Origin: Candidatus Latescibacterota bacterium | GTDB lineage: Bacteria > Latescibacterota > UBA2968 > GCA-2709665 | NCBI GenBank assembly: GCA_965248435.1 | Contig: OZ252100.1 | Coordinates: 4,512,001-4,576,000, forward strand | Length of the DNA: 64,000 nt | Reading direction: 5' to 3' | Part shown: positions 43,014 to 61,094 of the stretch, in pieces | Layout of the letters: the number at the start of each line of letters is the position of its first letter | How positions within the stretch are numbered: position 1 is the first letter of the stretch | Translations under genes and position numbers: made by a program | The notes under the pieces: model-generated | Seen by the model: the letters and a program-made list of their open reading frames with translations, nothing else | The model's database searches: none | What the model was told of the DNA's origin: nothing

Positions 43014-43055
43014 CCGGGTTCAGAAATAGATTCAGCTGTCTGGCTGGAAAATGGC

Positions 43056-43084
43056 TTGACAGCACGATCACAATTTCTTAATCT
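43056..43084 (+). promoter_or_regulatory. Sigma-70 promoter of the aromatic operon leader
   Basis: TTGACA-17 nt-TAATCT, about 30 nt upstream of the leader peptide start. Confidence 0.65.
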
Positions 43085-43114
43085 TTATTACAGAGCATCA
43101 AAAGGAGACTGAAA

Positions 43115-43219
43115 TTGAACTTGCAAACGGGCAGCACGCTCTTTTGGCGCAACGCATACGATGGGTCCTTCTGGTATTACCGGCAAGGCGCGCGGGGAGC
43201 TGTATGCCCACCTGGTTAA
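43115..43219 (+). CDS. Aromatic-amino-acid leader peptide (34 aa; MNLQTGSTLFWRNAYDGSFWYYRQGARGAVCPPG)
   Basis: AAGGAG RBS then TTG; 2 Phe, 2 Trp and 3 Tyr clustered; overlaps the antiterminator upstream of trpE. Confidence 0.75.
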   Translation: MNLQTGSTLFWRNAYDGSFWYYRQGARGAVCPPG

Positions 43220-43274
43220 CGAGGTTCTGACCGACCGATTCAGGGGCCGTGGGCATACGCTCACGGCCCTTTTT
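43202..43274 (+). terminator. Attenuator: antiterminator and intrinsic terminator
   Basis: Terminator GGGCCGTGGGC-ATAC-GCTCACGGCCC-TTTTT (43244-43274). GTATGCCCAC (43202-43211) is the exact complement of GTGGGCATAC (43249-43258). Confidence 0.8.
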
Positions 43275-43331
43275 ACGTTCATCTAAAGGCCTTGACAATG
43301 TTTTCATTCGTTTTTTCCGTAATGCTAAGCC

Positions 43332-43360
43332 GTAGAGACGCCCCGCCGGGGCATCTCTAC
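43332..43360. repeat. GTAG-type REP-like palindrome
   Basis: GTAGAGACGCCCCG-CCGGGGCATCTCTAC, a near-perfect inverted repeat with GTAG/CTAC ends. Confidence 0.65.
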
Positions 43361-43386
43361 AGGACATTCAAGGATCGGGTTGGATC

Positions 43387-44856
43387 ATGATTTCCCTCGA
43401 AAACGTTCGCGGTTTGGCTGATCGCGGAGGGTTGGTTCCGGTGTCTCGTAAGATTCTGGCTGACACCGAGACGCCTGTCTCGGCCTACCTCAAGATTCGC
43501 TCCAAAAGCCCATACGCCTTCCTGTTCGAAAGCGTGGAGGGTGGCGAGAAGATCGGTCGCTACTCGTTCCTGGGCGTCGGACCCTTTCTCATCTTCAGGT
43601 CGCGGGGCGCCGAAATCCAGGTAGAGGATCTGGAAAAGGGCGAAAAGAAGACGTTCGAAGGAGATCCGATCTCCGAATTCCGAAAGCTGTTGAAGCGTTT
43701 TCGTTCGGTACACGTGGATGGCCTGCCGCGATTTACAGGCGGCGCCGTCGGCTACGTCGGCTACGATGCGATCCGCCTGATCGAGGACATTCCAGACCAG
43801 ACGGTGGATGACATGGAACTGGACGATATCCTCTTTCTGTTCTTCGATACGCTGCTGGCGTTCGACAACATCCAACACCAGATTCATCTCATTTCGAACG
43901 TTCACACGAGTGGAAATCTGGAGGCCAGCTACCGAAGAGCGGTGGACCGGATCATCTCTCTGGAGGAGACCTTGCAGCGTCCGTCCCTGGTTACGCTTTC
44001 TAAAGGGGGGAGCGCCTGCGATGTGCGGTCAAACACCGAACCTTCGGATTATCTGGACAAGGTTCGTCGTTGCAAGGAATATATCGTTTCGGGAGACGTG
44101 CTCCAGGTGGTGCTCTCTCAACGATTTGAAACAGAAGTAACGGTAGATTCCTTAGACGTCTACAGAATGCTTCGTGTCGTGAATCCTTCACCGTATATGT
44201 TTCACCTGGATCTCAAAGACCTGCAGATTGTCGGCACGTCTCCGGAGTTGCTCGTTCGCGTAGAGGAAGGGGTCGTTCAGGTGCGCCCTATCGCTGGAAC
44301 GCGATGGCGGGGTCAGACGGAGCAGGAAGATCGTCACCTGGCCGATGAGCTGCTCGCCGACGAAAAGGAGCGGGCCGAGCACATTATGCTTGTTGATCTC
44401 GGCCGAAATGACGTCGGACGTGTGTCAGAATTCAACACGGTTCGCGTGACCGATCAGATGGTGATCGAGCGCTATTCACACGTGATGCACATCGTTTCGA
44501 ACGTGATGGGTGAACTCCGTAAGGACGTGGATGCGCTCGACGCCCTTTTCGCGTGCTACCCCGCTGGCACGGTTTCAGGGGCCCCGAAGGTTCGTGCGAT
44601 GGAGATCATCGACGAGCTCGAGCCGACCCGGCGGGGACCGTATGCTGGTGCCGTGGGTTACATCGACTTTTCTGGAAACATGGACACCTGCATCGCGATT
44701 CGAACGATGATCCTGAAAAACGGCAAGGCATACGTACAGGCAGGAGGAGGTATCGTGTTCGATTCGGTCCCCGAAAACGAATACCAGGAAACTGTGAACA
44801 AATCCCGGGCACTATTCCGAGCGGTCGAGCTGGCGGAGCGCGGGGAACTCAGATGA
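43387..44856 (+). CDS. trpE: Anthranilate synthase component I
   Basis: '[16 protein letters not shown]', 'QVVLSQR', 'NPSPYM', 'RPIAGT', '[12 protein letters not shown]', 'GAPKVRAM'. Confidence 0.97.
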
Positions 44857-45416
44857 TCCTGATGATCGATAATTACGATTCCTTCACGTATAACCTGGTC
44901 CAGTATTTGGGAGAGCTGGGGGCCGAGTTGGAGGTCCATCGCAACGATCAGATCTCACTTCAGGAAGTGGAAAGCCTTGCGCCAGAAAAGGTTGTGATCT
45001 CGCCCGGCCCGTGTACGCCGAACGAGGCGGGAATCTCAGTGGAATTGATTCAGGTGTTTGCAGGCCGGTTTCCCATTCTGGGGGTCTGTTTGGGACACCA
45101 ATCGGTCGGTCAGGCCTTCGGGGCCGACATCGTCGGCGCACCCACAATTATGCACGGCAAGGTTTCGGAGATATACCACGACGACAGGACGGTTTTCAAG
45201 GGTCTTTCGCAGGGCTTCGTTGCCACCCGCTATCACTCCCTTGTCGTGGATAGAGAAACACTGCCGGACTGTATGGAGGTCTCGGCCGAAACGTCGGAGG
45301 GAACAATCATGGGCGTTCGACATAAAAAGCTGCCCGTCGAGGGCGTCCAGTTCCACCCAGAGTCGATCCTGACTGGTGAAGGGAAAAATCTCCTTCGAAA
45401 TTTCTTGGAGGCCTGA
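44853..45416 (+). CDS. trpG: Anthranilate synthase component II (glutamine amidotransferase)
   Basis: ATGA overlap with trpE; '[12 protein letters not shown]', 'SPGPC', 'GVCLGHQ', 'QFHPES'. Confidence 0.95.
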
Positions 45417-45426
45417 GGGGATAGAA

Positions 45427-46440
45427 ATGGACATGCAGGCAGCAATTGCTAAAGTGATAGAGGGTGAGGATCTCACTCGCGGAGAAACCGTCGCAGTGAT
45501 GGACCAGATTATGTCCGGGAAGGCGACCGAGGCACAGATTGGTGCGTTTCTGGTAGCGCTCCGCCTTAAAGGGGAGACGGTGGATGAGATCGTTGGCGCT
45601 GTTGAAGTGATGCGTGAAAAAGCAACTCCAATAGAGACAAGTCACGACATCGTCGTCGATACCTGCGGGACGGGTGGCGACCGTTCAGGTACATTCAATA
45701 TCTCCACAACGGCCGCCTTTGTGGTTTCCGGCTCAGGATTATGCGTAGCGAAACACGGAAACCGCGCGGCATCGAGCCAATGCGGAAGTGCCGACGTGTT
45801 GAAGGCGCTCGGTGTGAACATCGAAGCAACACCGGAGAAGGTTGGCGCGTGCCTGGACAAGGTAGGTATCGGGTTCTTGTTCGCGCCCGCGCTGCACGGA
45901 GCCATGAAGCACGCCATCGGCCCGCGCCGTGAGATCGGCATTCGCGTGATCTTCAATGTCCTCGGGCCGCTAACGAATCCTGCGGGCGCACGTCGGCAGC
46001 TGATTGGGGTTTACGACAGTGATTTGACCGAGACGCTGGCCGAGGTGCTTGGGCAGCTCGGATCTGAGCGGGCCCTCGTGGTACACGGTCTGGATGGGTT
46101 GGACGAGATTACGCTGACGGGTCCAAGCCGAGTATCTGAGCTAAAAGACGGAGACGTAAAGAGCTACGAGGTTGCGCCGGAAGATTTCGGGCTTTCGCGG
46201 AGCAGCGCGGAAGATCTAAAAGGGGGAGATGCCGAGACGAACGCCGATATCCTCCGGTCCGTGCTGGTCGGTCAGAAAGGTCCGACACGGGATGTCGTCC
46301 TCCTGAATGCTGCCGCGGCCCTCGTCGCGGGCGGGAGAGCAGAGGATATCTCAACGGGGGTCGAGATTGCTGCGGGAGCGATCGATTCTGGAATGGCTAT
46401 GCAGAAGTTGGAAGGCCTGATTGCGGAAAGTAACACTTAA
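45427..46440 (+). CDS. trpD: Anthranilate phosphoribosyltransferase
   Basis: 'DTCGTGGD', 'FNIST', 'KHGNR', 'GPLTNP', 'GLDE'. Confidence 0.97.
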
Positions 46441-46442
46441 TG

Positions 46443-46620
46443 CCGTGGATCGTGGATCGACGTTCGTGGATCGTGAAAAGACCGGGTACCGGGTATCATA
46501 AGAGATCGGCGGTGTAGGGGCGACGCACGCGTCGCCCGGGGGAAAGCAAAATACGGGTACCGGGGTTCGGGTAAGAGATCGCGGATCGCGGATTTCGAAT
46601 TGGGGATTGCGGAATCGAAT
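46443..46620. repeat. Composite repeat copy (REP hairpin within ACCGGGT 7-mers) with extra CGTGGAT/GCGGATT 7-mer runs
   Basis: GTAGGGGCGACGC-AC-GCGTCGCCC at 46514-46537, flanked by ACCGGGTACCGGG and AAAATACGGGTACCGGG as in the copies at 24949 and 60886. Confidence 0.75.
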
Positions 46621-46793
46621 GCAGAACAGATGGATCACTTTATCGACAACCCCCCTGAATCCCTGAGTGCGGAGGCTGTAAGTTCGTTTTGGATCGCGCG
46701 TCCGTATATCGAAGGGTCGGGCATAGCGAGCATTAGTCGTCAACTTCCGTGGATCGCGGGGGATGGCGGGCAAATTCCAGGAAGATTGATAAC

Positions 46794-47585
46794 GTGGGTG
46801 GAATTCTAGACGAAATTATCGAGTACAAGCGAGCGTTCGTCTCGGAGGCCCGCAAGCAGGTGTCGATCGAGGAAATGGCACAAACGGCCGCGAGTCGCCT
46901 GCCAGGTTCTTCTTTCGCGGGGAGCCTTACGGCCAGTGAGGACGTTGCAGTGATCGCCGAGGTGAAGAAGGCGTCGCCCTCCCGGGGGGTTATTCGGGCC
47001 GATTTCGATCCGGTGGCGATCGCGAAGACCTATGCGTCACAGGGGGCGTCGGCCATTTCTGTCCTAACAGACGAAAAGTACTTCCAAGGATCGGCGGGCG
47101 ACCTGAGCCTTGTGCGCAAAGCGGTCAATATTCCAGTGCTTCGTAAGGATTTCGTCGTTGACGCCTACCAGGTTTACGAGGCGAGGCATTTGGGTGCCTC
47201 TGCTGTCCTGCTGATCGTCGCCGCCCTATCGGCCGGCGAACTAGGGAATTTCATCGATCTGTGCAGGGAAGTCCGGATTGATGCCCTGGTCGAGGTGCAC
47301 ACCGAAGCGGAACTCGAGGTCGCTCTCAGGGCGGAGGCAAAGATCATCGGGATCAACAACAGAGATCTCAGGACCTTTGAGACCGATCTGCAGACGACGA
47401 TGACGGTCGTAAAAAAGATTCCCAGCGGGACGATTGTGGTGAGCGAAAGTGGGATCTTTACCAGGGATGACGTGCTTAAGGTGCAGGATGTCGGCGTGGA
47501 TGCGGTGCTGATTGGAGAGGGTTTGATGCGGGAGGCCGATATGGGTGCGAAACTTCGTGAATTGCTGGGACGGCAGGCCGCGTGA
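46794..47585 (+). CDS. trpC: Indole-3-glycerol phosphate synthase
   Basis: 'IAEVKKASPSRG', 'SVLTD..F.G', 'LRKDF', 'GINNRDL', 'VSESGI'. Confidence 0.97.
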   Translation: MGGILDEIIEYKRAFVSEARKQVSIEEMAQTAASRLPGSSFAGSLTASEDVAVIAEVKKASPSRGVIRADFDPVAIAKTYASQGASAISVLTDEKYFQGSAGDLSLVRKAVNIPVLRKDFVVDAYQVYEARHLGASAVLLIVAALSAGELGNFIDLCREVRIDALVEVHTEAELEVALRAEAKIIGINNRDLRTFETDLQTTMTVVKKIPSGTIVVSESGIFTRDDVLKVQDVGVDAVLIGEGLMREADMGAKLRELLGRQAA

Positions 47586-47592
47586 GGACGGT

Positions 47593-48213
47593 ATGGTTCA
47601 GGTGAAGATCTGCGGGATTACGAATCCGGAAGACGCCCTGTTCGCGGCTGAGCTTGGGGCTGACGCACTTGGGCTTATCTTCTATAACGAGAGCCCTCGC
47701 TATGTCAGCCCCGAATGCGCTGCTGAGATTGTGGCGGGATTGCCTCCGTTTGTTACCCCTGTAGGGGTTTTCGTGAATGAGGTTAAGGAGCGGACCGAAG
47801 AGATTGTGCGCCTCGTCGGCCTCAGGGCCATTCAGCTCCACGGCGATGAACCGCCCGAGGCCTGCAGCGGATACTCGATTCCTGTCATCCGGGCAGTACG
47901 CGTGGGTGACGAGCTCGATCTAGATGAGCTGAGCCGATACCCCGTTGAGACATTTCTGCTGGACACAGCCAGGGCGGGCTTGTATGGCGGCACCGGCGAA
48001 CCGTTCGACTGGTCAGTTGCGCGAAATGCTTCTTCGGCCAGGAGGATTATCCTGTCGGGTGGAATCGATCCTGAAAACGTTGCAGCTGCCATCGGGGCCG
48101 TCCAACCCTACGGGGTTGACAGCAGCAGTGGGGTGGAGGCTGCACCGGGACGCAAGGATCACCAGAAGCTGACGGCCTTCTTCGAGGCCGTTCGGTCTGT
48201 CGATGGTCGCTGA
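47593..48213 (+). CDS. trpF: Phosphoribosylanthranilate isomerase
   Basis: 'VKICGIT', 'SPRYV', 'QLHGDE', 'GGTG..FDW', 'VDSSSGVE'. Confidence 0.97.
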   Translation: MVQVKICGITNPEDALFAAELGADALGLIFYNESPRYVSPECAAEIVAGLPPFVTPVGVFVNEVKERTEEIVRLVGLRAIQLHGDEPPEACSGYSIPVIRAVRVGDELDLDELSRYPVETFLLDTARAGLYGGTGEPFDWSVARNASSARRIILSGGIDPENVAAAIGAVQPYGVDSSSGVEAAPGRKDHQKLTAFFEAVRSVDGR

Positions 48214-48225
48214 TTCTTGAGACGA

Positions 48226-49503
48226 ATGGGGAACACCCAAGTGGATATCATAGAAGACCTGGAATTCAGGGGATACGTTTCCCAGAATTCCGACCCCGAG
48301 GGGTTGAAGCAGAGGCTCTCCACTGAACCCGTGACGCTCTACGCAGGTTTCGATCCGACGGCGGACAGTCTGCACGTGGGGAGCCTGATCCCCATCCTGG
48401 GGCTCCGTCGCTTCCAGATGGCGGGACATAGACCGATTGCACTCGTCGGCGGGGGAACGGGTCTGATCGGTGATCCGAGCGGCAGGGCCTCCGAGCGACA
48501 GTTGAACACCAAAGAAGTCGTGGACGGGTTCGTGGAACAGCAGAAGAGACAGCTGGAACAGTTTCTGGATTTTGAATCGAAGGGCAACGCGGCAAGCGTC
48601 GTAAACAACTTCACGTGGCTCTCCGAGCTCGGGATGATCGAATTCCTGAGAGATATCGGGAAGCATTTTCCGCTGGGATACATGCTTGCCAAGGAGTCCG
48701 TGGCGTCACGACTCGAGGCGGGCATCTCGTTTACGGAATTCAGCTACATGGTCTTTCAGGCGTGTGATTTCCTGGAACTGTTTTCCAGGTTCGACTGCGA
48801 GTTGCAGATCGGCGGAAGCGACCAGTGGGGAAACATTACGGCTGGGATCGAGCTCATCCGGCGGAAACTCGGGAAGCAGGCCTACGGGCTGACCTTTCCC
48901 CTGCTCGAAAAGGCGGATGGGAGCAAGTTCGGAAAGACGGAGTCGGATAACGTCTGGCTTGATCCAGTGAAATCGAGCCCATACCAGTTTTATCAATTTT
49001 GGATCAATACAGACGATCGCGATGTTATCAAGTTCTTGAAGATCTTCACGTTCCTCTCGAAAAAGGAGATCCTGGATGTCGAGGCAGAGGTCCTGGATCG
49101 ACCTGAAAAGCGGACGGCGCAACGCGTTCTGGCGGAGAGCGTGACGGAGTTGGTGCACGGGGCGGGGGCTACTCAGCGGGCAGCGCACATATCGCAGTCC
49201 CTTTTTTATGGCGACCTGGATAAGCTTTCAGCAGAGGAGATCGAGGAGGGGTTCAGGGATGTGCCCTCCTTCGCGCTCCAGAAGATGGACGGCATTGGGC
49301 TGATCGATCTCCTGGTGACGGCCGGCGTTTCGCCATCCAAGCGTCAGGCAAGAGAGGATGCCGGAAATGGTGCGATCACGATAAACGGGGAACGCTGCAC
49401 AGACCTCAATCGCCAGTTCGTCCCCTCAGATCGTCTGGGCGGAACCTATCTGGTCGTCCGGAGAGGGAAACAGAAATATCACCTCGTCCGGTGGGATGTT
49501 TGA
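48226..49503 (+). CDS. tyrS: Tyrosine--tRNA ligase
   Basis: 'YAGFDPTADSLHVG', 'QIGGSDQWGNI', 'KFGKT', C-terminal S4 domain. Confidence 0.97.
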   Translation: MGNTQVDIIEDLEFRGYVSQNSDPEGLKQRLSTEPVTLYAGFDPTADSLHVGSLIPILGLRRFQMAGHRPIALVGGGTGLIGDPSGRASERQLNTKEVVDGFVEQQKRQLEQFLDFESKGNAASVVNNFTWLSELGMIEFLRDIGKHFPLGYMLAKESVASRLEAGISFTEFSYMVFQACDFLELFSRFDCELQIGGSDQWGNITAGIELIRRKLGKQAYGLTFPLLEKADGSKFGKTESDNVWLDPVKSSPYQFYQFWINTDDRDVIKFLKIFTFLSKKEILDVEAEVLDRPEKRTAQRVLAESVTELVHGAGATQRAAHISQSLFYGDLDKLSAEEIEEGFRDVPSFALQKMDGIGLIDLLVTAGVSPSKRQAREDAGNGAITINGERCTDLNRQFVPSDRLGGTYLVVRRGKQKYHLVRWDV

Positions 49504-49546
49504 ATAGCGGATTTTGGATTGCGGAATGAAAGGGAAGTGATTCGAC

Positions 49547-50761
49547 GTGTCGTCTGTAAAACACACAACAACGCTGCCTGACGAACAGGGTCGTTTTGGG
49601 CCATATGGTGGCCGGTTTGTGCCGGAGACGCTGATGTGTCTCCTGGAGGATCTGGAAGCGGCCTACGGGGAAGCCAAGGATGACCCAGAGTTCAAGCGCG
49701 AGCTAGACACCTACCTTCGCGAGTACGTCGGTCGGCCAACACCGCTCTACTTTGCGGAAAGGTTGACCAAAGCGCTGGGAGGTGCGAAGATCTACCTGAA
49801 GCGTGAGGACCTGGCTCATACCGGGGCCCACAAAATCAACAATACGATGGGACAGATCCTGCTTGCCAGGCGGATGGGCAAGAAGCGAATCATCGCGGAG
49901 ACTGGCGCGGGTCAGCACGGGGTAGCCACGGCGACAGTAGCGGCCATGTTCGGTCTGGAATGCGAGATCTACATGGGGACGGAGGACATGGACCGGCAGG
50001 CGCTCAACGTGTTCAGGATGCGCCTTCTGGGGTCCAAAGTGACCGGGGTCACCTCAGGAAGCAGAACACTCAAGGATGCGATCAACGAAGCGATCCGGGA
50101 CTGGGTGACCAACGTCGAAACGACCTTTTACATTTTTGGTTCTGTGCTCGGTCCGCATCCCTATCCTATGATCGTCAGGGACTTTCAGCGTGTAATTGGC
50201 GTGGAGACCAGGGAGCAGATTCTAAAAGCGGAAGGGAGGCTCCCAGACTGCCTGATCGCCTGCGTGGGGGGTGGAAGCAACGCGATTGGGCTGTTTCACG
50301 AGTTTCTGGATGACAAGGAAGTGAAGATGATCGGTGTGGAAGCGGGCGGGCACGGAATTTCGACGGGGGAACACGCGGCGCGGTTTCAGGGCGGGGATCT
50401 GGGCGTCCTTCACGGGGCGCGTATCTATCTTCTGCAGGACAAAAACGGTCAAATCGCCCTTACCCACTCTGTTTCGGCGGGGCTGGACTACTCGGGCGTC
50501 GGTCCGGAACACTGTTACCTCAGAGATGAGGGACGGATCGATTATACCTACGCGACGGACGAGGAGGCCCTCGAAGGTTTTGAGAGGCTAAGTCAAACGG
50601 AAGGAATTCTGCCTGCACTCGAGAGCGCACACGCGATCGCAGAGGTCAAAAAGGTCGCTCCCCGCATGGAGAAGGACAGCATCATCATCGTCAATCTTTC
50701 AGGAAGGGGAGACAAAGACGTTCAGCAGGCTGCAAAGTTCTTAGGGGGGATGGACGAATAG
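49547..50761 (+). CDS. trpB: Tryptophan synthase beta chain
   Basis: '[15 protein letters not shown]', 'AETGAGQHG', 'CVGGGSNA', 'SAGLDY', 'NLSGRGDKD'. Confidence 0.98.
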
Positions 50762-51582
50762 ATATCACGACCCGAATATCGAGGACCTTTCTCCGGCTCA
50801 AAGAGAACTCCGAGACCGGATTCATCGCCTACGTCACCGCAGGTGATCCTGACCTGAAGACGAGCGAAGCGCTCGTGCTCGAACTGGAGCAGCGTGGGGT
50901 AGATATCGTAGAACTGGGCGTTCCCTTTTCAGACCCGATGGCCGATGGGACGATCAACCAGGCCTCGGCTCAGAGGGCCCTTTTGCACAACGTCTCCCTT
51001 CTGGATGTTCTTGCCATGGCCGAACGACTTCGTGCTCGAACCGACCTCCCGATTGTCCTTTTCACATACTACAATCCGGTACACCATATGGGTCTTGAAG
51101 CCTTTGCGGATCGGGCCGCAGACGCAGGGGTCGACGGAGTTCTGGCACTGGATCTGCCTCCTGAGGAGGCCGGGGACTATAAGCGTCTCCTGAATAGAGG
51201 AGGTTTGGATACGATCTTCCTCGTAGCCCCGACCAGCAGGGAGCACCGGATCCGTTTGATCTCATCGGTTTCGACGGGATTCGTCTACTGTGTTTCTCGA
51301 ACGGGTGTTACTGGGGAACGCGAGGGACTTTCAGATAGAGTTCGGCCTCTGGTTGAAAGTGTGCGGTGCCACACGACTGAGCCGATCGCCGTGGGCTTCG
51401 GTGTGTCGCAACCCGATCAGGTCTCTGAGATCGCCGCCTACGCAGACGCAGTTGTCGTCGGGAGCGCAATCGTTCGGAAAATCGGGGAGGAGGCCGAGAA
51501 GGGCGGGAATCTGATCTCCAATGTGGGACAATTCGTGGAGACGCTCGTCGGGCCTTCAAAAGGGGTAACGCATGGACATTGA
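50758..51582 (+). CDS. trpA: Tryptophan synthase alpha chain (start uncertain, probably non-canonical)
   Basis: '[13 protein letters not shown]', '[10 protein letters not shown]', 'VGFG', 'VVGSA'. The conserved N-terminal 'RI..F....[10 protein letters not shown]' is in frame upstream of the first GTG (50875). Confidence 0.9.
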
Positions 51583-51847
51583 GGACTGGCGAAAGAAGAT
51601 CGATGAACTGGATGCGAAGTTGTTGGAACTGCTGAACGAAAGGGTATCCCTGGCGCTGGAGATCGGTAAGATCAAGGCCACAAATGCAAAGCCAGTCTAT
51701 TCACCCGATCGGGAAGCCTATATTCGAAACCGTCTCAAGACGCTGAATTCGGGGCCGTTGCCCGATGAAGCTGTCGATCGACTTTTTCAGATGATCATCG
51801 ATGAGTCTCGGCGCATGGAGGAGGAGGACAGCGGAGCGGAGGAGTAA
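51572..51847 (+). CDS. Chorismate mutase (AroQ type, monofunctional)
   Basis: 'R.KIDELD..LLELLNER..LA.EIG.IK....VY.PDRE'. Confidence 0.9.
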   Translation: MDIEDWRKKIDELDAKLLELLNERVSLALEIGKIKATNAKPVYSPDREAYIRNRLKTLNSGPLPDEAVDRLFQMIIDESRRMEEEDSGAEE

Positions 51848-51879
51848 AACCCTGGCCGGCAGGTAGGAGAGTTAGAGGG

Positions 51880-52908
51880 ATGAGTTTTACAGCGATTTGC
51901 GAGCTTCCGGGTCCCGAGGCCATTCAGGAGGCGATTCCCCTTTCAGAGGAGTTGAAGCGGATCAAGTCTGAGAGGGATCAGGAGATCCGGGCGATTTTCG
52001 AGCGGAAGAGCGAGAAATTTCTCGTTGTGATCGGGCCATGTTCGGCGCACGACGAAGATGCGGTTTGTGAATACGTAAGCCGACTCGCCAGGCTCCAGGA
52101 GGAAGTAAAGGAGCGGCTCGTTCTGATCCCGAGAATCTACACGAACAAGCCGAGGACGACAGGGGAAGGGTACAAGGGTATGGGGCACCAGCCGGACCCT
52201 CAGAAGGAACCCAATATTGCCGAGGGCATCAGTGCCATTCGGAGGATGCACGTGCGGGCCCTTGGGGAATCGCACCTGACGGCTGCGGACGAGATGCTCT
52301 ACCCTGGAAATACGCCTTATCTCGAAGATGTGCTGAGCTACGTCGCCATCGGGGCGCGGTCTGTAGAAAACCAGCAGCACCGGCTGACGGCCAGCGGCCT
52401 CGACGTGCCCGCTGGGATGAAGAACCCGACGGGCGGAGATCTGGACGTGATGTTGAACGCGATCTATGCTGCTCAGCTATCTCACGTTTTCAGTTACAAC
52501 GGCTGGGAAGTCGAGACGACCGGTAATCCTCTGGCACACGCCCTTTTGAGGGGCTTCGTAGATTCTTCCGGGAGGAGCATTCCGAACTATCACCACGAGG
52601 ATCTGATCCACATCGCTGAAGCGTATTTGAAACGCTCGCCTGCCAATCCGTCGATTATCGTGGACACAAACCACGCCAACTCGAACAAGCAGTTCCAGGA
52701 GCAGCCGAGGATCGGCATGGAAGTGATCCGAAGCCTCCAGAGTTCTGATCTTTTGAGAGGGATGATCCGGGGACTCATGGTCGAAAGTTATCTGGTGGAG
52801 GGATCTCAAGACGTAGATGAAGAGGTCTACGGAAAATCAATCACGGATTCCTGTCTGGGTTGGGAGGCGTCGGAAGATTTTGTGAGACAGGTCGCAGAGG
52901 TGTGCTGA
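51880..52908 (+). CDS. aroG: 3-deoxy-7-phosphoheptulonate (DAHP) synthase, class I-alpha
   Basis: 'IGPCSAHD', 'KPRTT..YKG', 'IGARS.ENQ.HR..ASG', 'KNPT.G', 'HANS', 'SITD.CLGW'. Isozyme name (aroF/G/H) is uncertain. Confidence 0.9.
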   Translation: MSFTAICELPGPEAIQEAIPLSEELKRIKSERDQEIRAIFERKSEKFLVVIGPCSAHDEDAVCEYVSRLARLQEEVKERLVLIPRIYTNKPRTTGEGYKGMGHQPDPQKEPNIAEGISAIRRMHVRALGESHLTAADEMLYPGNTPYLEDVLSYVAIGARSVENQQHRLTASGLDVPAGMKNPTGGDLDVMLNAIYAAQLSHVFSYNGWEVETTGNPLAHALLRGFVDSSGRSIPNYHHEDLIHIAEAYLKRSPANPSIIVDTNHANSNKQFQEQPRIGMEVIRSLQSSDLLRGMIRGLMVESYLVEGSQDVDEEVYGKSITDSCLGWEASEDFVRQVAEVC

Positions 52909-52930
52909 ATCCGATAAGGCGTGGTTTAAT

Positions 52931-53091
52931 TGCGGATTGCGGATCTGGGATTGCGGAATGGGAGGGAACGTATCTCGTATCAGGTATCTCGGCGTTAATG
53001 ACCTTCTTAGTACAACAGCGCGATTCGATTCTATCCTATTCGGAGAGCAAGATGTATCCGACGAGATACACTTCACGAGATACGAGATACG
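52931..53091. repeat. Intergenic 7-mer arrays, partly inverted (GCGGATT; GTATCTC versus GAGATAC)
   Basis: TGCGGATTGCGGATCTGGGATTGCGGAAT, then CGTATCTCGTATC..GTATCTCG and its reverse complement CGAGATAC..CGAGATACGAGATACG. Confidence 0.65.
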
Positions 53092-53106
53092 CTCGAAGAG
53101 TCGACT

Positions 53107-54219
53107 ATGTCGGATGATACCCAATTCGCTTCAGCCAGGATTACGATCGTTGGCGTCGGGCTGATCGGTGGATCGCTCGGGCTTGCCCTCAAGCGCTTTG
53201 GGATTGGACGAGAGATCGTCGGGGTCAGCCGACCCGAGACAGTTGAAGCCGCGAAAAAAATGGGGGCCATTGACACAGGATTTGACTATGATCAATTGAA
53301 AGCGGGTGTGGAGGAATCTGAACTTGTGATTCTCTCGACGCCCATTTCCCGGATTCTGGAGCTCTTACCCGAGGTTGTGTCCGGGGTTTCAGAAGGGACT
53401 CTGATTACCGACGTCGGGAGTACCAAGCGCGAAATCGTTGCTGTGGCATCTTCATTGAAGCGGGAAGGGGTCATCTTCGTCGGGGGGCACCCGATGGCGG
53501 GGTCCGAGCAGAGGGGCGTGACGGCCGCCGATCCCTTCCTTTTCGAGAACGCGATCTATATCGTTACCCCAGAGGATGACGTTCCCGAACTCTGGGTGAA
53601 TCGTTTGGTGAACCTGATCGGCCGCCTTGGTGCAAGGCCGATGCGGATCACTGCGCAGGCCCACGATCGTGTTGCTGCCGCGGTGAGTCACCTGCCCCAG
53701 TTGATGGCCACGGCTCTGGTTGGGATGATTGGACGGCTCCACGAGCAGGACGGGGTCCCGATCGAGATGGCAGCCGGGGGGTTCCGGGATCTGACGCGGA
53801 TCGCATCGAGCCCCTACGCAATGTGGCGCGACATCTGCAAGACAAATGTAGGACCGATCCGGGAGATGATCGATCTGTATCTCAGGGATCTGGGCGCCCT
53901 GCGAGATCGAGTGGATGACGACGAATTGGCGGGCAACTTCTCGTATGCAAATGAGATCCGAGGCAATATTCCCAAGGACTCGAAGGGATTTCTCCATACC
54001 CTACACGAGATCTTACTGATCGTCGAGGACCGCCCCGGAGTGATTGCAGGGGTTGCGACAGCGCTTTCGTCGGCAGGGATCAACATCGATGACATCGAAG
54101 TGCTCAAGGTTCGCGAGAGAGAGGGGGGTACGATTCGTATGGGATTCGATACGAAGGAAACCGCCGCGCGGGCCATTGCTATTCTGGATGAGGCGGGTTA
54201 CCGAGTTCGGATGAGGTAG
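53107..54219 (+). CDS. tyrA: Prephenate/arogenate dehydrogenase with C-terminal ACT domain
   Basis: 'GVGLIGGS', 'TDVGSTK', 'GGHPMAGSE', 'HD...A.VSHLP', 'GFRDLTRIA', ACT 'DRPGVIA'. Confidence 0.95.
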   Translation: MSDDTQFASARITIVGVGLIGGSLGLALKRFGIGREIVGVSRPETVEAAKKMGAIDTGFDYDQLKAGVEESELVILSTPISRILELLPEVVSGVSEGTLITDVGSTKREIVAVASSLKREGVIFVGGHPMAGSEQRGVTAADPFLFENAIYIVTPEDDVPELWVNRLVNLIGRLGARPMRITAQAHDRVAAAVSHLPQLMATALVGMIGRLHEQDGVPIEMAAGGFRDLTRIASSPYAMWRDICKTNVGPIREMIDLYLRDLGALRDRVDDDELAGNFSYANEIRGNIPKDSKGFLHTLHEILLIVEDRPGVIAGVATALSSAGINIDDIEVLKVREREGGTIRMGFDTKETAARAIAILDEAGYRVRMR

Positions 54220-54222
54220 AGA

Positions 54223-55551
54223 ATGGAGATGAGAGAGCTCGTTTCTGAGTCAATGGAGCAGACGGTCTCGCCGATCAAGGGACTTTCGGGTGAGTGCGAT
54301 CTTCCAGGGCATCCAGAGCTGTCCATGATGGCGCTGGCCCTGTCGGCCAAGGCCGAGGGGACGTCTATTATCCGCCGATGCTCGCGCCGGCCTGAGGTAA
54401 AGACCCTCGCAGGATACCTGGCCCAGATAGGGATAACGGTGGGCTGGGAGGCTGAGGAAGCCAGGGTCACGGGGGGCGTGCTTCAGGCCTCGAATGGTGC
54501 GTTTGATGTCGGGCGATCCGAAGTCCTCTTCGGGTGCCTGGCCGGGCTTGCCGCGGGGGCGGACCTTAGACTGACGTTTGAGGGAAGTCCAGCCGCCGAA
54601 ACCGGCGTGAAGCCCGTCCTGGAAGCGCTTCAATCGTTCGGCGCAAGGTTCACTCCATCCTTCGAAAGCGTCTTCCCCGTAGAGAGCGGGGGCAGCAAGC
54701 CGAGACCCGGTTCTTTCGGTGCCGGCAGGCCAAGCGCTGCAGTCAAAACAGCTGTTTTCCTGGCTACGCTGGATGTCGGCGGTGAGATCGAACTGCTTCA
54801 GGAGGCCGCAGGCGAAGAGGATCTCGAGGTCCTGCTGAAGGCAGCGGGAGGAGACCTTAGGAAGGCCAGGGTTCAGGGAGGGGAAGGCTATCGCCTCGTG
54901 CTGCGCGGACCGGTGTCGGTTCAGGCGACCGAGCAAGATCTTCCAGGGGACCCGGATGCCGCCTTGTTTCTTTTGTTCGCCGCATCCATGCATAAGACGT
55001 CCGACGTGACGCTGCTCGGTGTTGGAAATGACTGGAAGACCCGACGGCTGCTGGACCTGCTGCGGCGGATGAACGCACAGATCGAGATCAAGGTGACACG
55101 ATCCGCATCAGGATTTTCCACGCGCATCGTGCGCGCGACGGGATCGGAGCTTCGGCGTACGAAGATTTCGGGGGAGCAGTCGTCCCTCTTTATGGACGAG
55201 ATCCCGGTTCTGGCCGTGATGGGCGCGCGGGCGGCCGGCGAGACGGTCATTCGGGATGCCCGTGCTCTGCGCGATGGTCCCAACGACTGCCTTGCCTTGA
55301 TGGCGGAGAATCTTCGCAAGATGCAGGTCCGCGTCGGAGAGATTACAGACGGGTTGGTGGTCCAGGGGGGAAGGACGCTTCGCGGCGCGGATGTGGATGG
55401 GGGTGGGGATTCGCGCGTCACCCTGGCGCTTACGCTTGCAGGGCTTGTGGCAGAAGGAGAAACGAAGATCAAAAATCCGGGCCCCGTCGATCGAGACTAC
55501 CCCGGCGTTCTGGACCGCTTGTTGTCCCTGAGCGAAAAGAGAGGGGAGTGA
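54223..55551 (+). CDS. EPSP synthase (AroA)-fold protein with degenerate active site
   Basis: Length and scaffold match AroA ('PG', 'S..VK.A..LA', 'PGD', 'DEIPVLAV.GA.A.GET.I', 'YP'), but KS..HR, GNSGT, RPM, SAQ, KE.DR and DHR are substituted. Confidence 0.75.
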   Translation: MEMRELVSESMEQTVSPIKGLSGECDLPGHPELSMMALALSAKAEGTSIIRRCSRRPEVKTLAGYLAQIGITVGWEAEEARVTGGVLQASNGAFDVGRSEVLFGCLAGLAAGADLRLTFEGSPAAETGVKPVLEALQSFGARFTPSFESVFPVESGGSKPRPGSFGAGRPSAAVKTAVFLATLDVGGEIELLQEAAGEEDLEVLLKAAGGDLRKARVQGGEGYRLVLRGPVSVQATEQDLPGDPDAALFLLFAASMHKTSDVTLLGVGNDWKTRRLLDLLRRMNAQIEIKVTRSASGFSTRIVRATGSELRRTKISGEQSSLFMDEIPVLAVMGARAAGETVIRDARALRDGPNDCLALMAENLRKMQVRVGEITDGLVVQGGRTLRGADVDGGGDSRVTLALTLAGLVAEGETKIKNPGPVDRDYPGVLDRLLSLSEKRGE

Positions 55552-55553
55552 TT

Positions 55554-55694
55554 ATGAAGGTGTTACTCAGGTTGGCACTGTTGACGATTCTCACGGTTTT
55601 TGGGGCCGTCGCCTTTATTCGGTATACCTATGGCTGTTCCTGGAAGGAAAGTTTCGACATCGCGGACCGGTTCGTCGAGGACCTCCTAGGGTAA
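55554..55694 (+). CDS. Small (46 aa) membrane-anchored hypothetical protein
   Basis: GGGGAG then ATG; MKVLLRLALLTILTVFGAVAFIRYTYGCSWKESFDIADRFVEDLLG exactly fills the aroA-like/aroE gap. Not in the ORF track. Confidence 0.6.
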   Translation: MKVLLRLALLTILTVFGAVAFIRYTYGCSWKESFDIADRFVEDLLG

Positions 55695-55703
55695 GGATCC
55701 AGT

Positions 55704-56570
55704 TTGAAGATCCAGGCAACGAGTCAGGTGCTCGGTGTGATCGGGCACCCGATTTCTCATTCTTTTTCCCCAGACCTTCACAACGCCGCAATCGATGCCC
55801 TTGGCATCGATTATTGCTATGTGGCCTATCATGTCCTGCCGGATAGGGTTGGATCCGCGATCGAGGGATTGCGCGGCCTGAACATTCGGGGTCTAAACGT
55901 TACGATTCCCCATAAACTGGCGGTGATGGAACATCTGGACCAGATTTCGGAGGAGGCCCTGGCCGTCGGTGCTGTGAACACGATCTCGCACGAAGCGGAC
56001 GAGTTGATCGGCTACAACACGGACGTCTACGGAATTGAGGCCGCACTGGTGCGCGTGGCCGGTCTGGAACTGTTGCCAGAAAACTGCGTTGTCCTGGGTG
56101 CGGGTGGTGCCGCTCGGGCGGTTGTCTACGCCCTTGGGAATCGGAAGGAAGTCCAAAGGATCACGATCTTGAACCGAACCGCAAAGCGGGCCGAGGACCT
56201 TGCCAAGGACATGGAAAAGTTGACGGGGAAGACGATCGATGTTGGCGGAATGGACGCCGACGGCCAGGATCGGGCCTTTTCGGAGGCGGGACTCGTCGTG
56301 AATGCGACTTCACTGGGGATGGTTCCGAACATAAAAGATTCCCCCCTGATGAGCGAACGTGCGGTTCACTCAAACCTGGTACTCTACGACACCGTATTCA
56401 ACCCACTCGAGACCCGGCTTATGGGGCAGTTCCGTGAGGTGGGGGCTCAGGCCTTTGGCGGCCTGGATATGCTCGTCTTTCAGGGCGCGCGATCGTTCCA
56501 GATATGGACCGGTATCGAGCCCCCCGTCGATGTGATGAAGCAGGCTGTTCTCTCCAGTCTTAAGACTTAG
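55704..56570 (+). CDS. aroE: Shikimate dehydrogenase
   Basis: 'GHPISHSFSP', 'NVTIPHK', 'GAVNT', 'NTD', 'GAGGAARA', 'NATSLGM', 'GLDMLVFQG'. Confidence 0.95.
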   Translation: MKIQATSQVLGVIGHPISHSFSPDLHNAAIDALGIDYCYVAYHVLPDRVGSAIEGLRGLNIRGLNVTIPHKLAVMEHLDQISEEALAVGAVNTISHEADELIGYNTDVYGIEAALVRVAGLELLPENCVVLGAGGAARAVVYALGNRKEVQRITILNRTAKRAEDLAKDMEKLTGKTIDVGGMDADGQDRAFSEAGLVVNATSLGMVPNIKDSPLMSERAVHSNLVLYDTVFNPLETRLMGQFREVGAQAFGGLDMLVFQGARSFQIWTGIEPPVDVMKQAVLSSLKT

Positions 56571-56572
56571 CT

Positions 56573-57283
56573 GTGGGCCCGAACAGAGATGTGAAGCGGG
56601 TATTCGTGCGTGGAATGTTCGACCGGATCGCGGGGACGTATGACCTGCTCAACCACGTTCTCAGCGCGGGTATCGACATCCTGTGGCGCCGCAAGGCGAT
56701 TGACGGGCTTGGACCCGAGCCCGCCTGGCGGGTGCTTGATCTGGCGACCGGCACGGGCGATCTCGGGTTTGAGGTCTCGCGACGCGACTCGCACATCTCT
56801 GTGGTGGGAGTGGACGTCTCAATCCCCATGCTTCGGCGGGGGATCGAAAAGGCGGAGTCCAGACCAGGCCGCACAACCTTCTGCTGTGGCGACGCAGGGC
56901 ATCTCCCCTTGTCGAGTGGTCGGTTTGAAGGGGTGACGATCGGGTTCGGGATTCGGAACGTGTGGGACGTGGATGCTGCTCTGAAGGAGATCCATCGTGT
57001 CCTGCGCCCTGGAGGCAGGCTTGCTGTTCTCGAGTTCTCCCGCCCTCGACTGTTCCTGCTCAGGGACCTCTACTTCTTCTACTTCAAACACGTCCTTCCC
57101 ACGGTCGGCCGCGTAGTTTCTGGTGACCGCCGTGCGTATCAATACCTCTACGAGTCCGCGATGCAGTTTCCCGAGGGCCGGGATTTCTGTCGTCACCTCG
57201 AAAACGAACGATTCGTAGACCTGATCGAGAACCGTATGACGTTCGGGATTGCGACGCTCTACCTTGCCCGAAAGCCCGAATAG
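56573..57283 (+). CDS. menG: Demethylmenaquinone/ubiquinone C-methyltransferase (UbiE/MenG)
   Basis: 'MFDRIA..YDLLN..LS.G....WR', 'LDLATGTGD', 'FGIRN', 'LRPGG', 'LEFS', 'Y.YL.ES..FP'. Confidence 0.9.
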   Translation: MGPNRDVKRVFVRGMFDRIAGTYDLLNHVLSAGIDILWRRKAIDGLGPEPAWRVLDLATGTGDLGFEVSRRDSHISVVGVDVSIPMLRRGIEKAESRPGRTTFCCGDAGHLPLSSGRFEGVTIGFGIRNVWDVDAALKEIHRVLRPGGRLAVLEFSRPRLFLLRDLYFFYFKHVLPTVGRVVSGDRRAYQYLYESAMQFPEGRDFCRHLENERFVDLIENRMTFGIATLYLARKPE

Positions 57284-57303
57284 GAACGATCGGAGATTTT
57301 ATT

Positions 57304-59010
57304 TTGCCGAACCCCTTTGTAGATGAGATCGTGCAGCAACTGGCCCAGGCATCGGGTGTTTCATCTGAGGACTTCGTCCCCCTGATCGAAGTGCCCCCAA
57401 ATCCGGACCTGGGAGATTACGCGCTGCCCTGTTTTAGCCTGGCAAAGACGCTTCGGAAGGCCCCGAACCAGATCGCGCTGGAGTTGGCAGAGCAGTTGAA
57501 ATTCGGCGACAGGATCTCGGAGGTACGCGCGGCGGGACCCTATATCAATTTCTTCGTTCACCCGTCCAGCTTTGTCGAGGAGGTCCTCTCGAAGGTTCTT
57601 GCCCAGAGTCGAGAGTTCGGTCGTACAGATGTCGGGACTGGTAAGACGATCGTCATCGATTTTTCCCACCCGAACGTCGCCAAGCCTTTCGGGATTCATC
57701 ACCTGCGTTCGACAGTGATCGGGAATGCGCTCAGGAATATCTTCCGGGCGCTGGGATACGAGGTTGTGGGCGTCAACCACCTAGGAGACTGGGGTTCTCA
57801 GTTCGCCAAGCTCATTGTGGCCTGGAAGCGCTGGGGTGAAGGCGAGCTCACAGAAGAGGCCATCAACATCCAATCGCTTTTGGATCTCTACGTGCGAATC
57901 CACGAGGAGATCGAAGACGATCCTGCGGTAGAAGAAGAAGCCCGAAACTGGTTCCGACGCCTGGAGGACGGAGATGCTGAAGCCACGCGTATGTGGCAGG
58001 TATGCGTTAATGTCAGCTTCAAAGAGTTCAACCGCGTTTATGAAACGCTGGGGATCACGTTTGAATCCGTGGCGGGGGAGAGTTTTTATCAGGATAAGAT
58101 GCCGGCTACGCTCAAGCGGTTGGAGGAGATGGGACTTACCCGGATCAGCGAAGGGGCGACGATTGTAGACCTCTCCGAGTGGGATATGTCTCCCTTCATG
58201 GCCCTGCGAAGTGACGATGCCACGCTTTATGCCACGCGCGATCTGGCCGCGGTCGAATACCGCCAGGAAACCTACGGGTTTCATCAGATGCTCTATGTGG
58301 TAGACGTGGCGCAGTCTCTGCATTTCAGGCAGCTGTTCAAGGTCCTGGAGTTGATGGGCTATGAATGGGGCGAACGATGTGCCCACGTCGTGTTCGGCCG
58401 GCTTCGCTTCAAGGATGGAGCGATGTCTACGCGGCGGGGTCAGATTATCTTTCTGGAAGACGTGCTGAACAAGGCGGTGGATCTGACACGGGAGATCATC
58501 GAAGAGAAGAACCCGGATTTGCCGGACAAGGAGCAGGTGGCTCGAGATGTGGGGATCGGGGCTGTAATCTTCGCTGACTTGGATTCCCGTCGGGTTCGGG
58601 ACGTTGTGTTCGACTGGGACGAAGTCCTGAATTTTAACGGAGAGACCGGGCCTTATGTTCAGTATACACACGCGCGCTATCGTAGTGTGCTGCGGAACTT
58701 TGGACAAGCCCTGCCCCCTTCGGATGTCGATTTCTCTCTTCTGACCGAGCCTGAGACGCTTGCCGTTGTGAAATGCCTGGAACAGTTCCCGTCGCAGATT
58801 GAAAACGCGGCTGAGGAGTATGAACCCTCGCTCATCGCCACATATCTGATCGATCTGTGTAGGGTCGCGAACCGGTTCTACAACGCACACCGCGTGATTT
58901 CGGAAGAGGCACCGCTGACATCGGCGCGCGTGGCGCTCGTTTATGCCATCACGGAAGTGCTGGCCGCCGGGCTGGATCTTCTGGGCATGAAGGCGCCCGA
59001 GCAGATGTGA
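57304..59010 (+). CDS. argS: Arginine--tRNA ligase
   Basis: 'GDY', 'GPYINF', 'DFSHPNVAKP..HLRSTVIG', 'NHLGDWG', 'MSTRRG', 'GETGPYVQYTHAR', C-terminal 'PEQM'. Confidence 0.97.
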   Translation: MPNPFVDEIVQQLAQASGVSSEDFVPLIEVPPNPDLGDYALPCFSLAKTLRKAPNQIALELAEQLKFGDRISEVRAAGPYINFFVHPSSFVEEVLSKVLAQSREFGRTDVGTGKTIVIDFSHPNVAKPFGIHHLRSTVIGNALRNIFRALGYEVVGVNHLGDWGSQFAKLIVAWKRWGEGELTEEAINIQSLLDLYVRIHEEIEDDPAVEEEARNWFRRLEDGDAEATRMWQVCVNVSFKEFNRVYETLGITFESVAGESFYQDKMPATLKRLEEMGLTRISEGATIVDLSEWDMSPFMALRSDDATLYATRDLAAVEYRQETYGFHQMLYVVDVAQSLHFRQLFKVLELMGYEWGERCAHVVFGRLRFKDGAMSTRRGQIIFLEDVLNKAVDLTREIIEEKNPDLPDKEQVARDVGIGAVIFADLDSRRVRDVVFDWDEVLNFNGETGPYVQYTHARYRSVLRNFGQALPPSDVDFSLLTEPETLAVVKCLEQFPSQIENAAEEYEPSLIATYLIDLCRVANRFYNAHRVISEEAPLTSARVALVYAITEVLAAGLDLLGMKAPEQM

Positions 59011-59047
59011 GAGGCCGCGGCGCGCCGTCAGAGAGAGCAGTGATTGA

Positions 59048-59611
59048 ATGGACCCCGTTCCCGATCGTCAGATTTTCATCACCGGGTTTATGGCTACTGG
59101 AAAGAGCAAGATCGGCCCGATCGTCGCGAACTGTCTGGGACGGTCCTACGTGGATACTGACGATTTGATTCAAGAGGTGGCGGGGAAGACGATTCCAGAG
59201 ATTTTTGAGGAGGATGGCGAGGCGGCCTTTCGGAAGATCGAGCAGGACTGTGTCAGAAAAGCCTCCGGGATGCAGAATTCTGTGATCGCCTTGGGGGGTG
59301 GTGTGGTCACACACGAGGCCAACTGGGAGACGATTCGTTCTACGGGGATCTGTATCTGCTTGCGCGCCTCACCAGAGACGATCGACAGGCGAGTGGCACG
59401 AAGCCGTGAGCGGCCCCTGCTTGACGGATTGAATGACAAGACTCGAATGGAAAAGATTTGCGAGCTGCTCGCGGAGCGTGAGCCGTTCTATAGCAGGGCG
59501 GATCTGTTCGTGACGTCGACCGAAAACCGGAAGCCGGAAGGTACAGCGGAACTCGTTGTCGAGGCGTTGATGAAGTTTGCCCAAGAGACCGGGGACCGGG
59601 AAAGTAAATGA
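59048..59611 (+). CDS. aroK: Shikimate kinase
   Basis: 'GFMATGKS', 'DTD', 'IF..DGE..FR', 'ALGGG', 'RPLL'. Confidence 0.95.
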   Translation: MDPVPDRQIFITGFMATGKSKIGPIVANCLGRSYVDTDDLIQEVAGKTIPEIFEEDGEAAFRKIEQDCVRKASGMQNSVIALGGGVVTHEANWETIRSTGICICLRASPETIDRRVARSRERPLLDGLNDKTRMEKICELLAEREPFYSRADLFVTSTENRKPEGTAELVVEALMKFAQETGDRESK

Positions 59612-59758
59612 CGGGTACCGTGAAGCCGTCGCTCGTCGCTCGTCGTTCGCGGTTCGCAAACTAAAACCTTACCATATATGCCTGCCCCAGAAAATGCTTT
59701 TATTCCGGGGGCACAGAAGACACAGAGAAGATAGAGCGATGAAGAAAAGGCAGGATCG

Positions 59759-60991: not shown

Positions 60992-61094
60992 GTCGTTCGT
61001 CGCTCGTAGATCGCAAACAATCAAAAAGGGAAGGTCGAATGACCTTCCCTTTTGTCATTCCACAACAGATTGTGGAATGTTATAAGCACGGCGC

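Follow-up and report, generated by a model that had tools for sequence, protein, structure and literature searches.

Attenuation through a translated leader peptide is a textbook mechanism and is documented almost entirely in Proteobacteria, Actinobacteria and a few Firmicutes. In trpL of Escherichia coli, a short promoter-proximal open reading frame (ORF) with a Shine-Dalgarno sequence presents Trp codons followed by an Arg codon, the RNA folds into alternative 1:2, 2:3 and 3:4 segment pairs, and a terminator stands before trpE. The enterobacterial leaders of ilvGMEDA (Leu/Val/Ile) and thr (Thr/Ile) carry codons for several end products, and starvation for any of these can relieve termination. 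The aromatic leaders described are Trp-only, Phe-only or, in the case of aroR, Phe/Tyr. In Bacillus subtilis the trp genes form part of the supraoperon aroFBH-trpEDCFBA-hisC-tyrA-aroE, which also holds tyrA and shikimate genes, and the protein TRAP sets the switch before trpE by binding (G/U)AG repeats. Here, we analyzed a 64,000-nucleotide (nt) stretch from Candidatus Latescibacterota bacterium (contig OZ252100.1, positions 4,512,001 to 4,576,000, called the window below as a whole), in which a leader ORF with interleaved Phe, Trp and Tyr codons and a terminator precede trpE and a run of aromatic biosynthesis genes. We are highly confident that this element is a genuine trpL-type ribosome-mediated attenuator, and the best explanation of the locus as a whole, to which we assign a probability of roughly 0.55, is a multivalent attenuator of this type in front of a 17-gene aromatic supraoperon. 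Together, the leader and its switchable terminator very probably turn on the operon of 18 kilobases (kb) when charged aromatic tRNAs are low.

The leader of the window has in common with E. coli trpL an ORF with a Shine-Dalgarno sequence, Trp followed by Arg, alternative segments, a stop codon at which a terminating ribosome would mask segment 2, and a terminator ahead of trpE. It differs in its length of 34 codons (14 in trpL), in its TTG start, in Trp codons that stand among Tyr and Phe codons and not in tandem, in the 112-nt spacer between the terminator and trpE, and in the 17 genes that follow, which include tyrA, tyrS, argS and shikimate-pathway genes; it also has no sequence or covariance-model similarity to trpL, with no Rfam leader match at E <= 10. 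Compared with ilvGMEDA and thr, the presence of codons for several end products in one leader is shared, whereas the amino acids, the sequence and the lineage differ. The initial annotation of the window took classical leaders to respond to a single amino acid, a premise that overlooks these multivalent textbook cases. With the B. subtilis supraoperon the locus shares a large aromatic operon and a terminator/antiterminator switch before trpE, but it has a translatable leader and no repeat chain. The premise of single-amino-acid leaders also leaves out the F-Y-F leader aroR of Corynebacterium glutamicum, which lies upstream of aroF and controls a DAHP synthase operon by ribosome stalling at Phe-Tyr-Phe (Neshat et al. 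2014, via the review PMC11802643). Mixed aromatic codons are common to aroR and the window leader, but aroR has no Trp codon and does not stand before trp genes, and C. glutamicum has a separate trpL. For Actinobacteria, no conserved RNA regulatory structures are reported upstream of phe or tyr operons (PMC1262725). Neither a Trp/Tyr/Phe three-way leader nor attenuation in the phyla concerned here was found in the open-access literature, which is weak evidence since most subscription journals lay outside the scope of the search.

The leader lies in the 373-nt intergenic gap (43014-43386) between a Rieske-ferredoxin gene and trpE and is, according to the ORF list and a direct reading of the bases, the only small ORF of this gap with a Shine-Dalgarno-like sequence upstream. 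Direct reading also placed the promoter, the AAGGAG and the 34-codon leader with its pattern FW..Y..FWYY exactly where they had been annotated (Table 1). The -35 box is perfect and the -10 box agrees with TATAAT at only 3/6 positions, which is why a consensus promoter scan did not call the site at 43056-43084. None of the ORFs on the strand opposite to the leader region has a Pfam match. A tRNA scan gave no match. Seven of the 34 leader codons are aromatic (2 Trp, 3 Tyr and 2 Phe, interleaved) against a background of 6.75% in eight operon proteins (P = 0.0068), and TGG is the rarest aromatic codon here, at 5.8 per 1000. Trp, Tyr and Phe codons are adjacent in a single 12-nt block, placed where a stall would free the antiterminator. 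For four aromatic codons in succession, Trp among them, the six frames of the window give 2 occurrences in 127,996 codon positions and the loci fetched for comparison 33 in 1,777,254; by our arithmetic, about 0.006 such runs are expected in the 373-nt gap. What marks a classical attenuator is found at this locus: a short ORF with a ribosome-binding site near the predicted transcription start, a cluster of cognate codons, an intrinsic terminator that separates the leader ORF from the first structural gene, and an antiterminator that shares part of the terminator sequence and so cannot coexist with it.

The terminator (AGGGGCCGTGGGC-ATAC-GCTCACGGCCCTT plus the T-run) is GC-rich, as had been noted, with 9 G-C pairs among its 13, and is the sole terminator-like site in 42000-44500 in a terminator scan; a second, independent scan also finds the site at 43242-43274. 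The suggested alternative pairing with the 5' arm and loop of the terminator is borne out as an antiterminator of 14 base pairs (bp), 43197-43211 with 43249-43262, which includes GAGC/GCTC and one bulged T and in which GTATGCCCAC (43202-11) is exactly complementary to GTGGGCATAC (43249-58). It is the minimum free energy structure of transcripts truncated while the 3' arm of the terminator is still incomplete (-29.3 to -30.7 kcal/mol), and the terminator folded alone gives -25.2 kcal/mol. Only 14 of 1000 dinucleotide shuffles matched the antiterminator complementarity, and 3 of 200 shuffles of the whole leader fold at least as well as the leader itself (z = -2.44). A further helix, GCATAC (43154-59) with GTATGC (43202-07), had been put forward as well. 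The two strands are indeed complementary, but they do not form the favored anti-antiterminator: in the pre-terminator transcript (43091-43241) about 0 of the 6 pairs are expected, and enforcing the helix costs 7.4 kcal/mol. Because the favored partner of 43194-43209 is 43129-43144, in a strongly predicted 15-bp helix with 13.9 of 15 expected pairs, segment 1 had been misplaced in the initial annotation while the switch logic is unchanged. Codons F10-W11 lie on this anti-antiterminator helix. The leader stop codon begins 6 nt past segment 2, and in a masked fold with a ribosome placed on this stop codon, the terminator alone remains able to form.

In the mechanism that we propose, transcription would start a few bases past the -10 box (43079-84), and a ribosome would load at AAGGAG/TTG and translate the 34-codon leader. 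With plentiful aromatic aminoacyl-tRNAs, it would reach the TAA at 43217-19 and cover segment 2 (43197-43211), so that the terminator would form and RNA polymerase would stop before trpE. Without translation, segment 1 would hold segment 2 and the terminator would again form. When charged aromatic tRNA is scarce, the ribosome could stall on F10-W11, lying on segment 1, or on F19-W20-Y21-Y22, where its downstream edge would come to rest just short of segment 2 and stalled or queued ribosomes would keep segment 1 off. After either stall, the free segment 2 would pair with segment 3 once this has been transcribed, the terminator would be blocked and the operon would be read through. We think that the leader is multivalent because each of its seven interleaved stall-capable codons is so placed that a ribosome stalled there would free segment 2. 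As regards the amino acids that give a response, we infer that Trp is certainly sensed, Tyr probably and Phe possibly; that Tyr and Phe are both sensed in addition to Trp is plausible from the sequence, with the odds about evenly balanced.

Table 1. Features of the attenuator and its operon in window coordinates, and regions with Trp-only leaders in three related loci (coordinates of the respective locus)
Feature	Position	Strand	Description
Promoter-like site	43056..43084	+	-35 TTGACA 43056-61, spacer 17 nt, -10 TAATCT 43079-84; read directly
Shine-Dalgarno sequence AAGGAG	43102..43107	+	7 nt 5' of the TTG start at 43115
Leader ORF	43115..43219	+	34 codons + TAA (43217-19), TTG start; peptide MNLQTGSTLFWRNAYDGSFWYYRQGARGAVCPPG
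Segment 1, anti-antiterminator 5' strand	43129..43144	+	From the minimum free energy fold
First Phe-Trp pair, codons 10-11 (F10 W11)	43142..43147	+	TTT TGG; TTT inside segment 1, TGG abutting it
Tyr codon 15	43157..43159	+	TAC
Core regulatory block, F19 W20 Y21 Y22	43169..43180	+	TTC TGG TAT TAC; ends 16 nt 5' of the antiterminator strand
Segment 2	43194..43211	+	Partner is segment 1 (43194-43209) or, as GAGC(T)GTATGCCCAC 43197-43211, segment 3
Intrinsic terminator	43242..43274	+	Stem 43242-43271, 13 pairs (9 G-C), loop ATAC, then T5
Segment 3, antiterminator 3' strand	43249..43262	+	GTGGGCATACGCTC; covers the terminator loop, the upper 5' arm before it and the 4 nt of the 3' arm after it
Spacer between terminator and trpE	43275..43386	+	112 nt; 13-bp hairpin with one mismatch and a small ORF
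trpE	43387-44856		
Controlled genes	43387..60862	+	17 consecutive genes; Pfam and NCBIfam
Bidirectional terminator hairpin ending the operon	61027..61050	.	Two scans
Trp-only leader region, L077	5782-5962		NWWWR
Trp-only leader region, L079	92-263		SWWWQ
Trp-only leader region, L067	4385-4600		GWWRW

A scan based on trpE, with one genome per species, gave 80 loci, among which the best TrpE match, in a Latescibacterota metagenome-assembled genome (MAG; locus L001), reaches only 62% identity. In 2 of these 80 loci a leader with mixed aromatic codons, and a terminator after it, stand directly upstream of trpE, namely, in L001 (MRAHPLALLVGCFWYWRKNIGGDVCLSAGLVR, core FWYW) and in L015 from an Acidobacteriota MAG (MIGGFRGNYWYWRGVLGFVRVRSLPVP, core YWYW). 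Both leaders have ATG starts with GGAG or GAGG before them and, by eye, hexamer pairs spaced by 17 nt upstream, like the promoter of the window; the genes further upstream differ (isochorismatase and LpxC on the opposite strand). In both loci the 3' part of the leader pairs with the upper 5' arm and loop of the terminator, as in the window, and the antiterminator strands diverge yet stay complementary (GAGCTGTATGCCCAC/GTGGGCATACGCTC in the window, CGTATGTCT/GGACATACG in L001 and CGAGTCCGTTCAC/GTGAACGACTCG in L015). The terminator stems show compensating changes by eye (GCCGTG/CACGGC versus GCCACG/CGTGGC). The antiterminator is also the minimum free energy structure of the cut transcripts of L001 (-26.2 to -28.6 kcal/mol) and L015 (-32.7 to -37.8 kcal/mol), against -18.3 and -20.7 kcal/mol for the two terminators in isolation, and the antiterminator complementarity was matched by 38 and 30 of 1000 dinucleotide shuffles, respectively. 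From the last regulatory codon to the antiterminator strand there are 16 nt in the window, 20 nt in L001 and 21 nt in L015, a distance that corresponds approximately to the leading edge of a stalled ribosome. In L015, segment 1 would lie directly beneath the stalled ribosome.

A profile of the three leaders, run against 1.84 billion representative proteins, returned 2 matches at E <= 0.001. P0001 is an over-called ORF of 100 amino acids (aa) ending in ...GYWWYWRKDIGGDVCPSAGLV, and P0002, a 1053-aa repeat protein with SWWYQ-like motifs, was rejected as spurious. A follow-up search added a second over-called ORF, P0003, of 110 aa and ending in ...MTALLFTLLVGYWWYWRKDISEDVCLSAGLV; no short relatives (30-54 aa) of residues 61-100 of P0001 were found. 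Small leader ORFs are overlooked or over-extended by gene callers, the latter in P0001 and P0003. In the alignment of the five leaders, M1, G17, W20, Y21 and R23 are invariant, and the cores read GSFWYYR in the window, GCFWYWR in L001, GYWWYWR in P0001 and P0003, and GNYWYWR in L015. The relatives' leaders are only 25-36% identical to that of the window, and the Tyr codon is invariant nonetheless. Relative to them, the window has exchanged the second core W for Y and has gained the upstream F-W on segment 1 and a further Y. As to the conservation that was to be sought upstream of trpE, W-Y, the antiterminator and the terminator are kept in L001 and L015, and the relatives are richer in W. With the ORF, the regulatory codons and the helices conserved in 2 of 80 loci and 2 database ORFs, which is a small sample, and with the same layout before trpE in two distant MAGs with compensating changes, the annotation of an attenuator is strongly supported; the integration of all three aromatic amino acids that had been suggested with it is plausible and is beyond what sequence alone could establish.

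The initial annotation had listed trp genes, tyrA, chorismate mutase, tyrS and shikimate genes in the operon. This was correct, and the operon is larger than stated, with the 17 genes in the order trpE, trpG, trpD, trpC, trpF, tyrS, trpB, trpA, chorismate mutase (91 aa), DAHP synthase (AroFGH-type), tyrA (with an ACT domain), aroA, aroE, a ubiE-like methyltransferase gene, argS, aroK and aroB. Our own scan of the + strand between 43244 and 61027 found no hairpin of at least 8 pairs with a T-run and one 7-pair site at 50111, and a second terminator scan found only weaker + strand sites inside the operon (5-9 pairs, 3-4 G-C pairs). Since the next strong + strand terminator after the attenuator is the one at 61027-61050, a single control point could govern about 18 kb. 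The tyrS gene (48217-49503) sits between trpF and trpB, and the ubiE-like gene (56573-57283) and argS (57304-59010) sit between aroE and aroK. A tblastn search with the 17 operon proteins found tyrS inside the trp operon in 0 of 80 related loci, within the DNA fetched. With no such locus and the contig of L001 ending after trpF, we draw no correlation between leader type and operon content; the operon of L015 ends in DAHP synthase.

Whether the leader reads Tyr and Phe must be weighed against a Trp-only attenuator, in which the same machinery would depend on the two TGG codons alone and the Tyr and Phe codons would be kept for RNA structure or by descent, their stalls never being rate-limiting. 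We consider this a serious alternative, although the less probable one. The relatives speak for it and against multivalency, as all four have 2-3 W in the core and the visible operon of L001 is trp-only up to the contig end. In the DNA alignment, which covers three of the sequences, TGGTA does not vary, and this, together with the invariant G17, W20, Y21 and R23, could reflect a constraint at the RNA level. In a further 3 of the 80 loci, L077, L079 and L067 from Syntrophales and Syntrophorhabdus MAGs, Trp-only leaders (WWW or WWRW) followed by terminators precede similar operons, and in L077 and L079 a prephenate-dehydrogenase-like (tyrA-like) gene lies immediately 3' of trpA despite the WWW leader. 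These leaders share with that of the window a short ORF whose W block contains R or has R after it, and intrinsic terminators, which in L077 and L067 are two terminator-like hairpins in tandem, but they lack interleaved Y and F. The first genes of the operon in the window are trpEGDCF, and the rarity of TGG among the aromatic codons also fits a response to Trp alone. The same caution comes from aroR, the one mixed aromatic leader for which experiments are reported, which responds to Phe limitation and reportedly not to Tyr (PMC11802643). The comparative sample is also small, with the DNA of three sequences (the window, L001 and L015) and two peptides (P0001 and P0003). What a Trp-only attenuator explains poorly is that the core of the window has one W, flanked by F, Y and Y, with the other W 9 codons upstream, and that the core Tyr codon is kept at the same position in 5 of 5 leaders at so low an identity. 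Furthermore, stalls on any of the four adjacent core codons would leave the ribosome at positions no more than 9 nt apart, and the operon has the Tyr-specific products of tyrA and tyrS. To our minds, the invariant Tyr codon and the shift from W to Y/F in the window favor multivalency, as does an operon that encodes tyrA, tyrS, chorismate mutase and DAHP synthase; the DAHP synthase at the end of the L015 operon is a further point in favor.

Several points weigh against an attenuator of this kind in any form. The -10 box is weak. At equilibrium, the full-length RNA with the stalled ribosome masked still favors the terminator (-37.9 to -42.1 kcal/mol versus about -30.7 kcal/mol for the antiterminator), so antitermination must be kinetic, as in classical systems. 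For a stall on FWYY, neither segment 1 nor segment 2 falls inside the assumed footprint, and the exclusion of the 1:2 pairing would have to be a matter of steric hindrance or queueing. A switch that does without the ribosome (a TRAP-like protein, a T-box tRNA, a riboswitch) or a trans-acting small RNA, with the ORF incidental, is in our view very unlikely. It could draw on the 112-nt spacer with its extra hairpin, which the attenuator does not account for, and on the precedent for trans action by an attenuator-derived RNA, reported for rnTrpL of Sinorhizobium meliloti. However, the whole window has 0 Rfam matches at gathering score, and within 42500-44000 there are 6 matches at E <= 10, none of which reaches that score; they are to snoRNA, miRNA and small RNA (isrO) families and to no leader, T-box or riboswitch family (Trp_leader is an example of an Rfam leader family). 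The longest chain of (G/U)AG triplets of the TRAP type is 1, and a good Shine-Dalgarno sequence at ideal spacing together with an aromatic block kept at the codon level in five leaders would be unexpected for a factor-binding RNA. The least probable explanation by our estimate is a chance juxtaposition, in which the terminator ends the Rieske-ferredoxin cluster, a separate promoter serves trpE and the small ORF is meaningless. The terminator does lie 229 nt past the stop of the Rieske gene (43013), and the weak -10 box of the leader promoter and a TTGACA at 43292-97, 3' of the terminator, would fit such an arrangement, but that TTGACA has no acceptable -10 box at 16-18 nt, the joint chance estimates are very low, and the layout of leader, antiterminator and terminator recurs in L001 and L015 despite different upstream genes.

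If the multivalent trpL-type attenuator is the correct reading, it may belong to an as yet undescribed family of pan-aromatic attenuators in poorly studied phyla, a proposal that we make tentatively and hold to be less probable than its negation. A [F/Y/W]-W-Y-[W/Y] block would here read the charging of tRNA-Trp, tRNA-Tyr and tRNA-Phe jointly, with possible members in a lineage whose nearest TrpE is that of a Latescibacterota MAG and in an Acidobacteriota MAG. Were this so, the block would set the expression of an operon of 18 kb in which genes for the Trp and Tyr branches stand together with chorismate mutase, tyrS, argS and those for most of the shikimate pathway, and the copy in the window would be the most balanced one (2 F, 2 W, 3 Y), having shifted from W to Y/F as the operon absorbed Tyr and common-pathway genes. 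A conserved Trp/Tyr/Phe leader before trpE in uncultured lineages would widen the phylogenetic range of attenuation, would serve as a natural test of how codon mixtures tune multivalent attenuation, and would explain the single-point control of a very large aromatic supraoperon with an embedded tyrS.

The spacer between the terminator and trpE has features of its own. A 13-bp hairpin with one mismatch (43332-43360, GTAGAGACGCCCC-GCC-GGGGCATCTCTAC) lies just 5' of trpE without a T-run, and the spacer folds with z = -1.89. As a repeated element the hairpin was rejected, with 4 matches in the window at <=2 mismatches, its own two arms included, and 4 being reached by 1 of 100 shuffles. A second small ORF runs from an ATG at 43298 (also a TTG at 43292) to a TGA at 43390, with 3 Phe codons among the first six and a weak AAGG 8 nt upstream; its TGA overlaps the ATG of trpE (ATGA), which suggests translational coupling. 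In L001 a 32-codon ORF (3558-3656), without sequence similarity and without a Shine-Dalgarno sequence, likewise ends in ATGA on the trpE start, and L015 has no spacer before trpE. Within the operon, the gap between trpD and trpC (46441-46790, about 350 nt) is unusually long for an otherwise tightly packed operon and contains many GGATCG-type direct repeats (GTGGATCG, CGCGGATCG and GGGTACCGGG, the last twice) and a GC hairpin (GGGCGACGC..GCGTCGCCC).

Other candidate leaders among the related loci were set aside. Those of L013 (MTAWWPR) and L060 (...NSWWE...) lie inside or overlap long genes, and those of L010, L025, L062, L012, L080, L047 and L050 are fragments, C-terminal or in an alternative frame, that lack the combination of a W-containing block and a terminator. 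The candidate of L018 (...RWWRNWLW...), 1.5 kb from trpE, is dubious.

Directly 5' of the leader, the genes in 36350-43013 are of gamma-glutamyl hydrolase-like, glutamine-synthetase-like, cytochrome P450, acetoacetate decarboxylase family, fumarylacetoacetate hydrolase family, glyoxalase/dioxygenase and Rieske ferredoxin types, and together they resemble a catabolic route that depends on gamma-glutamylation and takes an amine or an aromatic compound as its substrate. Elsewhere in the window, genes of the type II dimethyl sulfoxide (DMSO)-reductase family at 2976-8117 encode the alpha subunit (1156 aa) and a gamma-like subunit of the heme-b type, to which a cytochrome c part is fused; both score under the equivalog cut-offs, and their closest families are ethylbenzene dehydrogenase and nitrate reductase. 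There is a mobB gene at 11937-12599, two RpoS/RpoD-like group sigma factors are encoded within 20 kb (15377-16267 on the + strand and 34183-35049 on the - strand), and a CusA/CzcA-type RND efflux set occupies 22174-28447.

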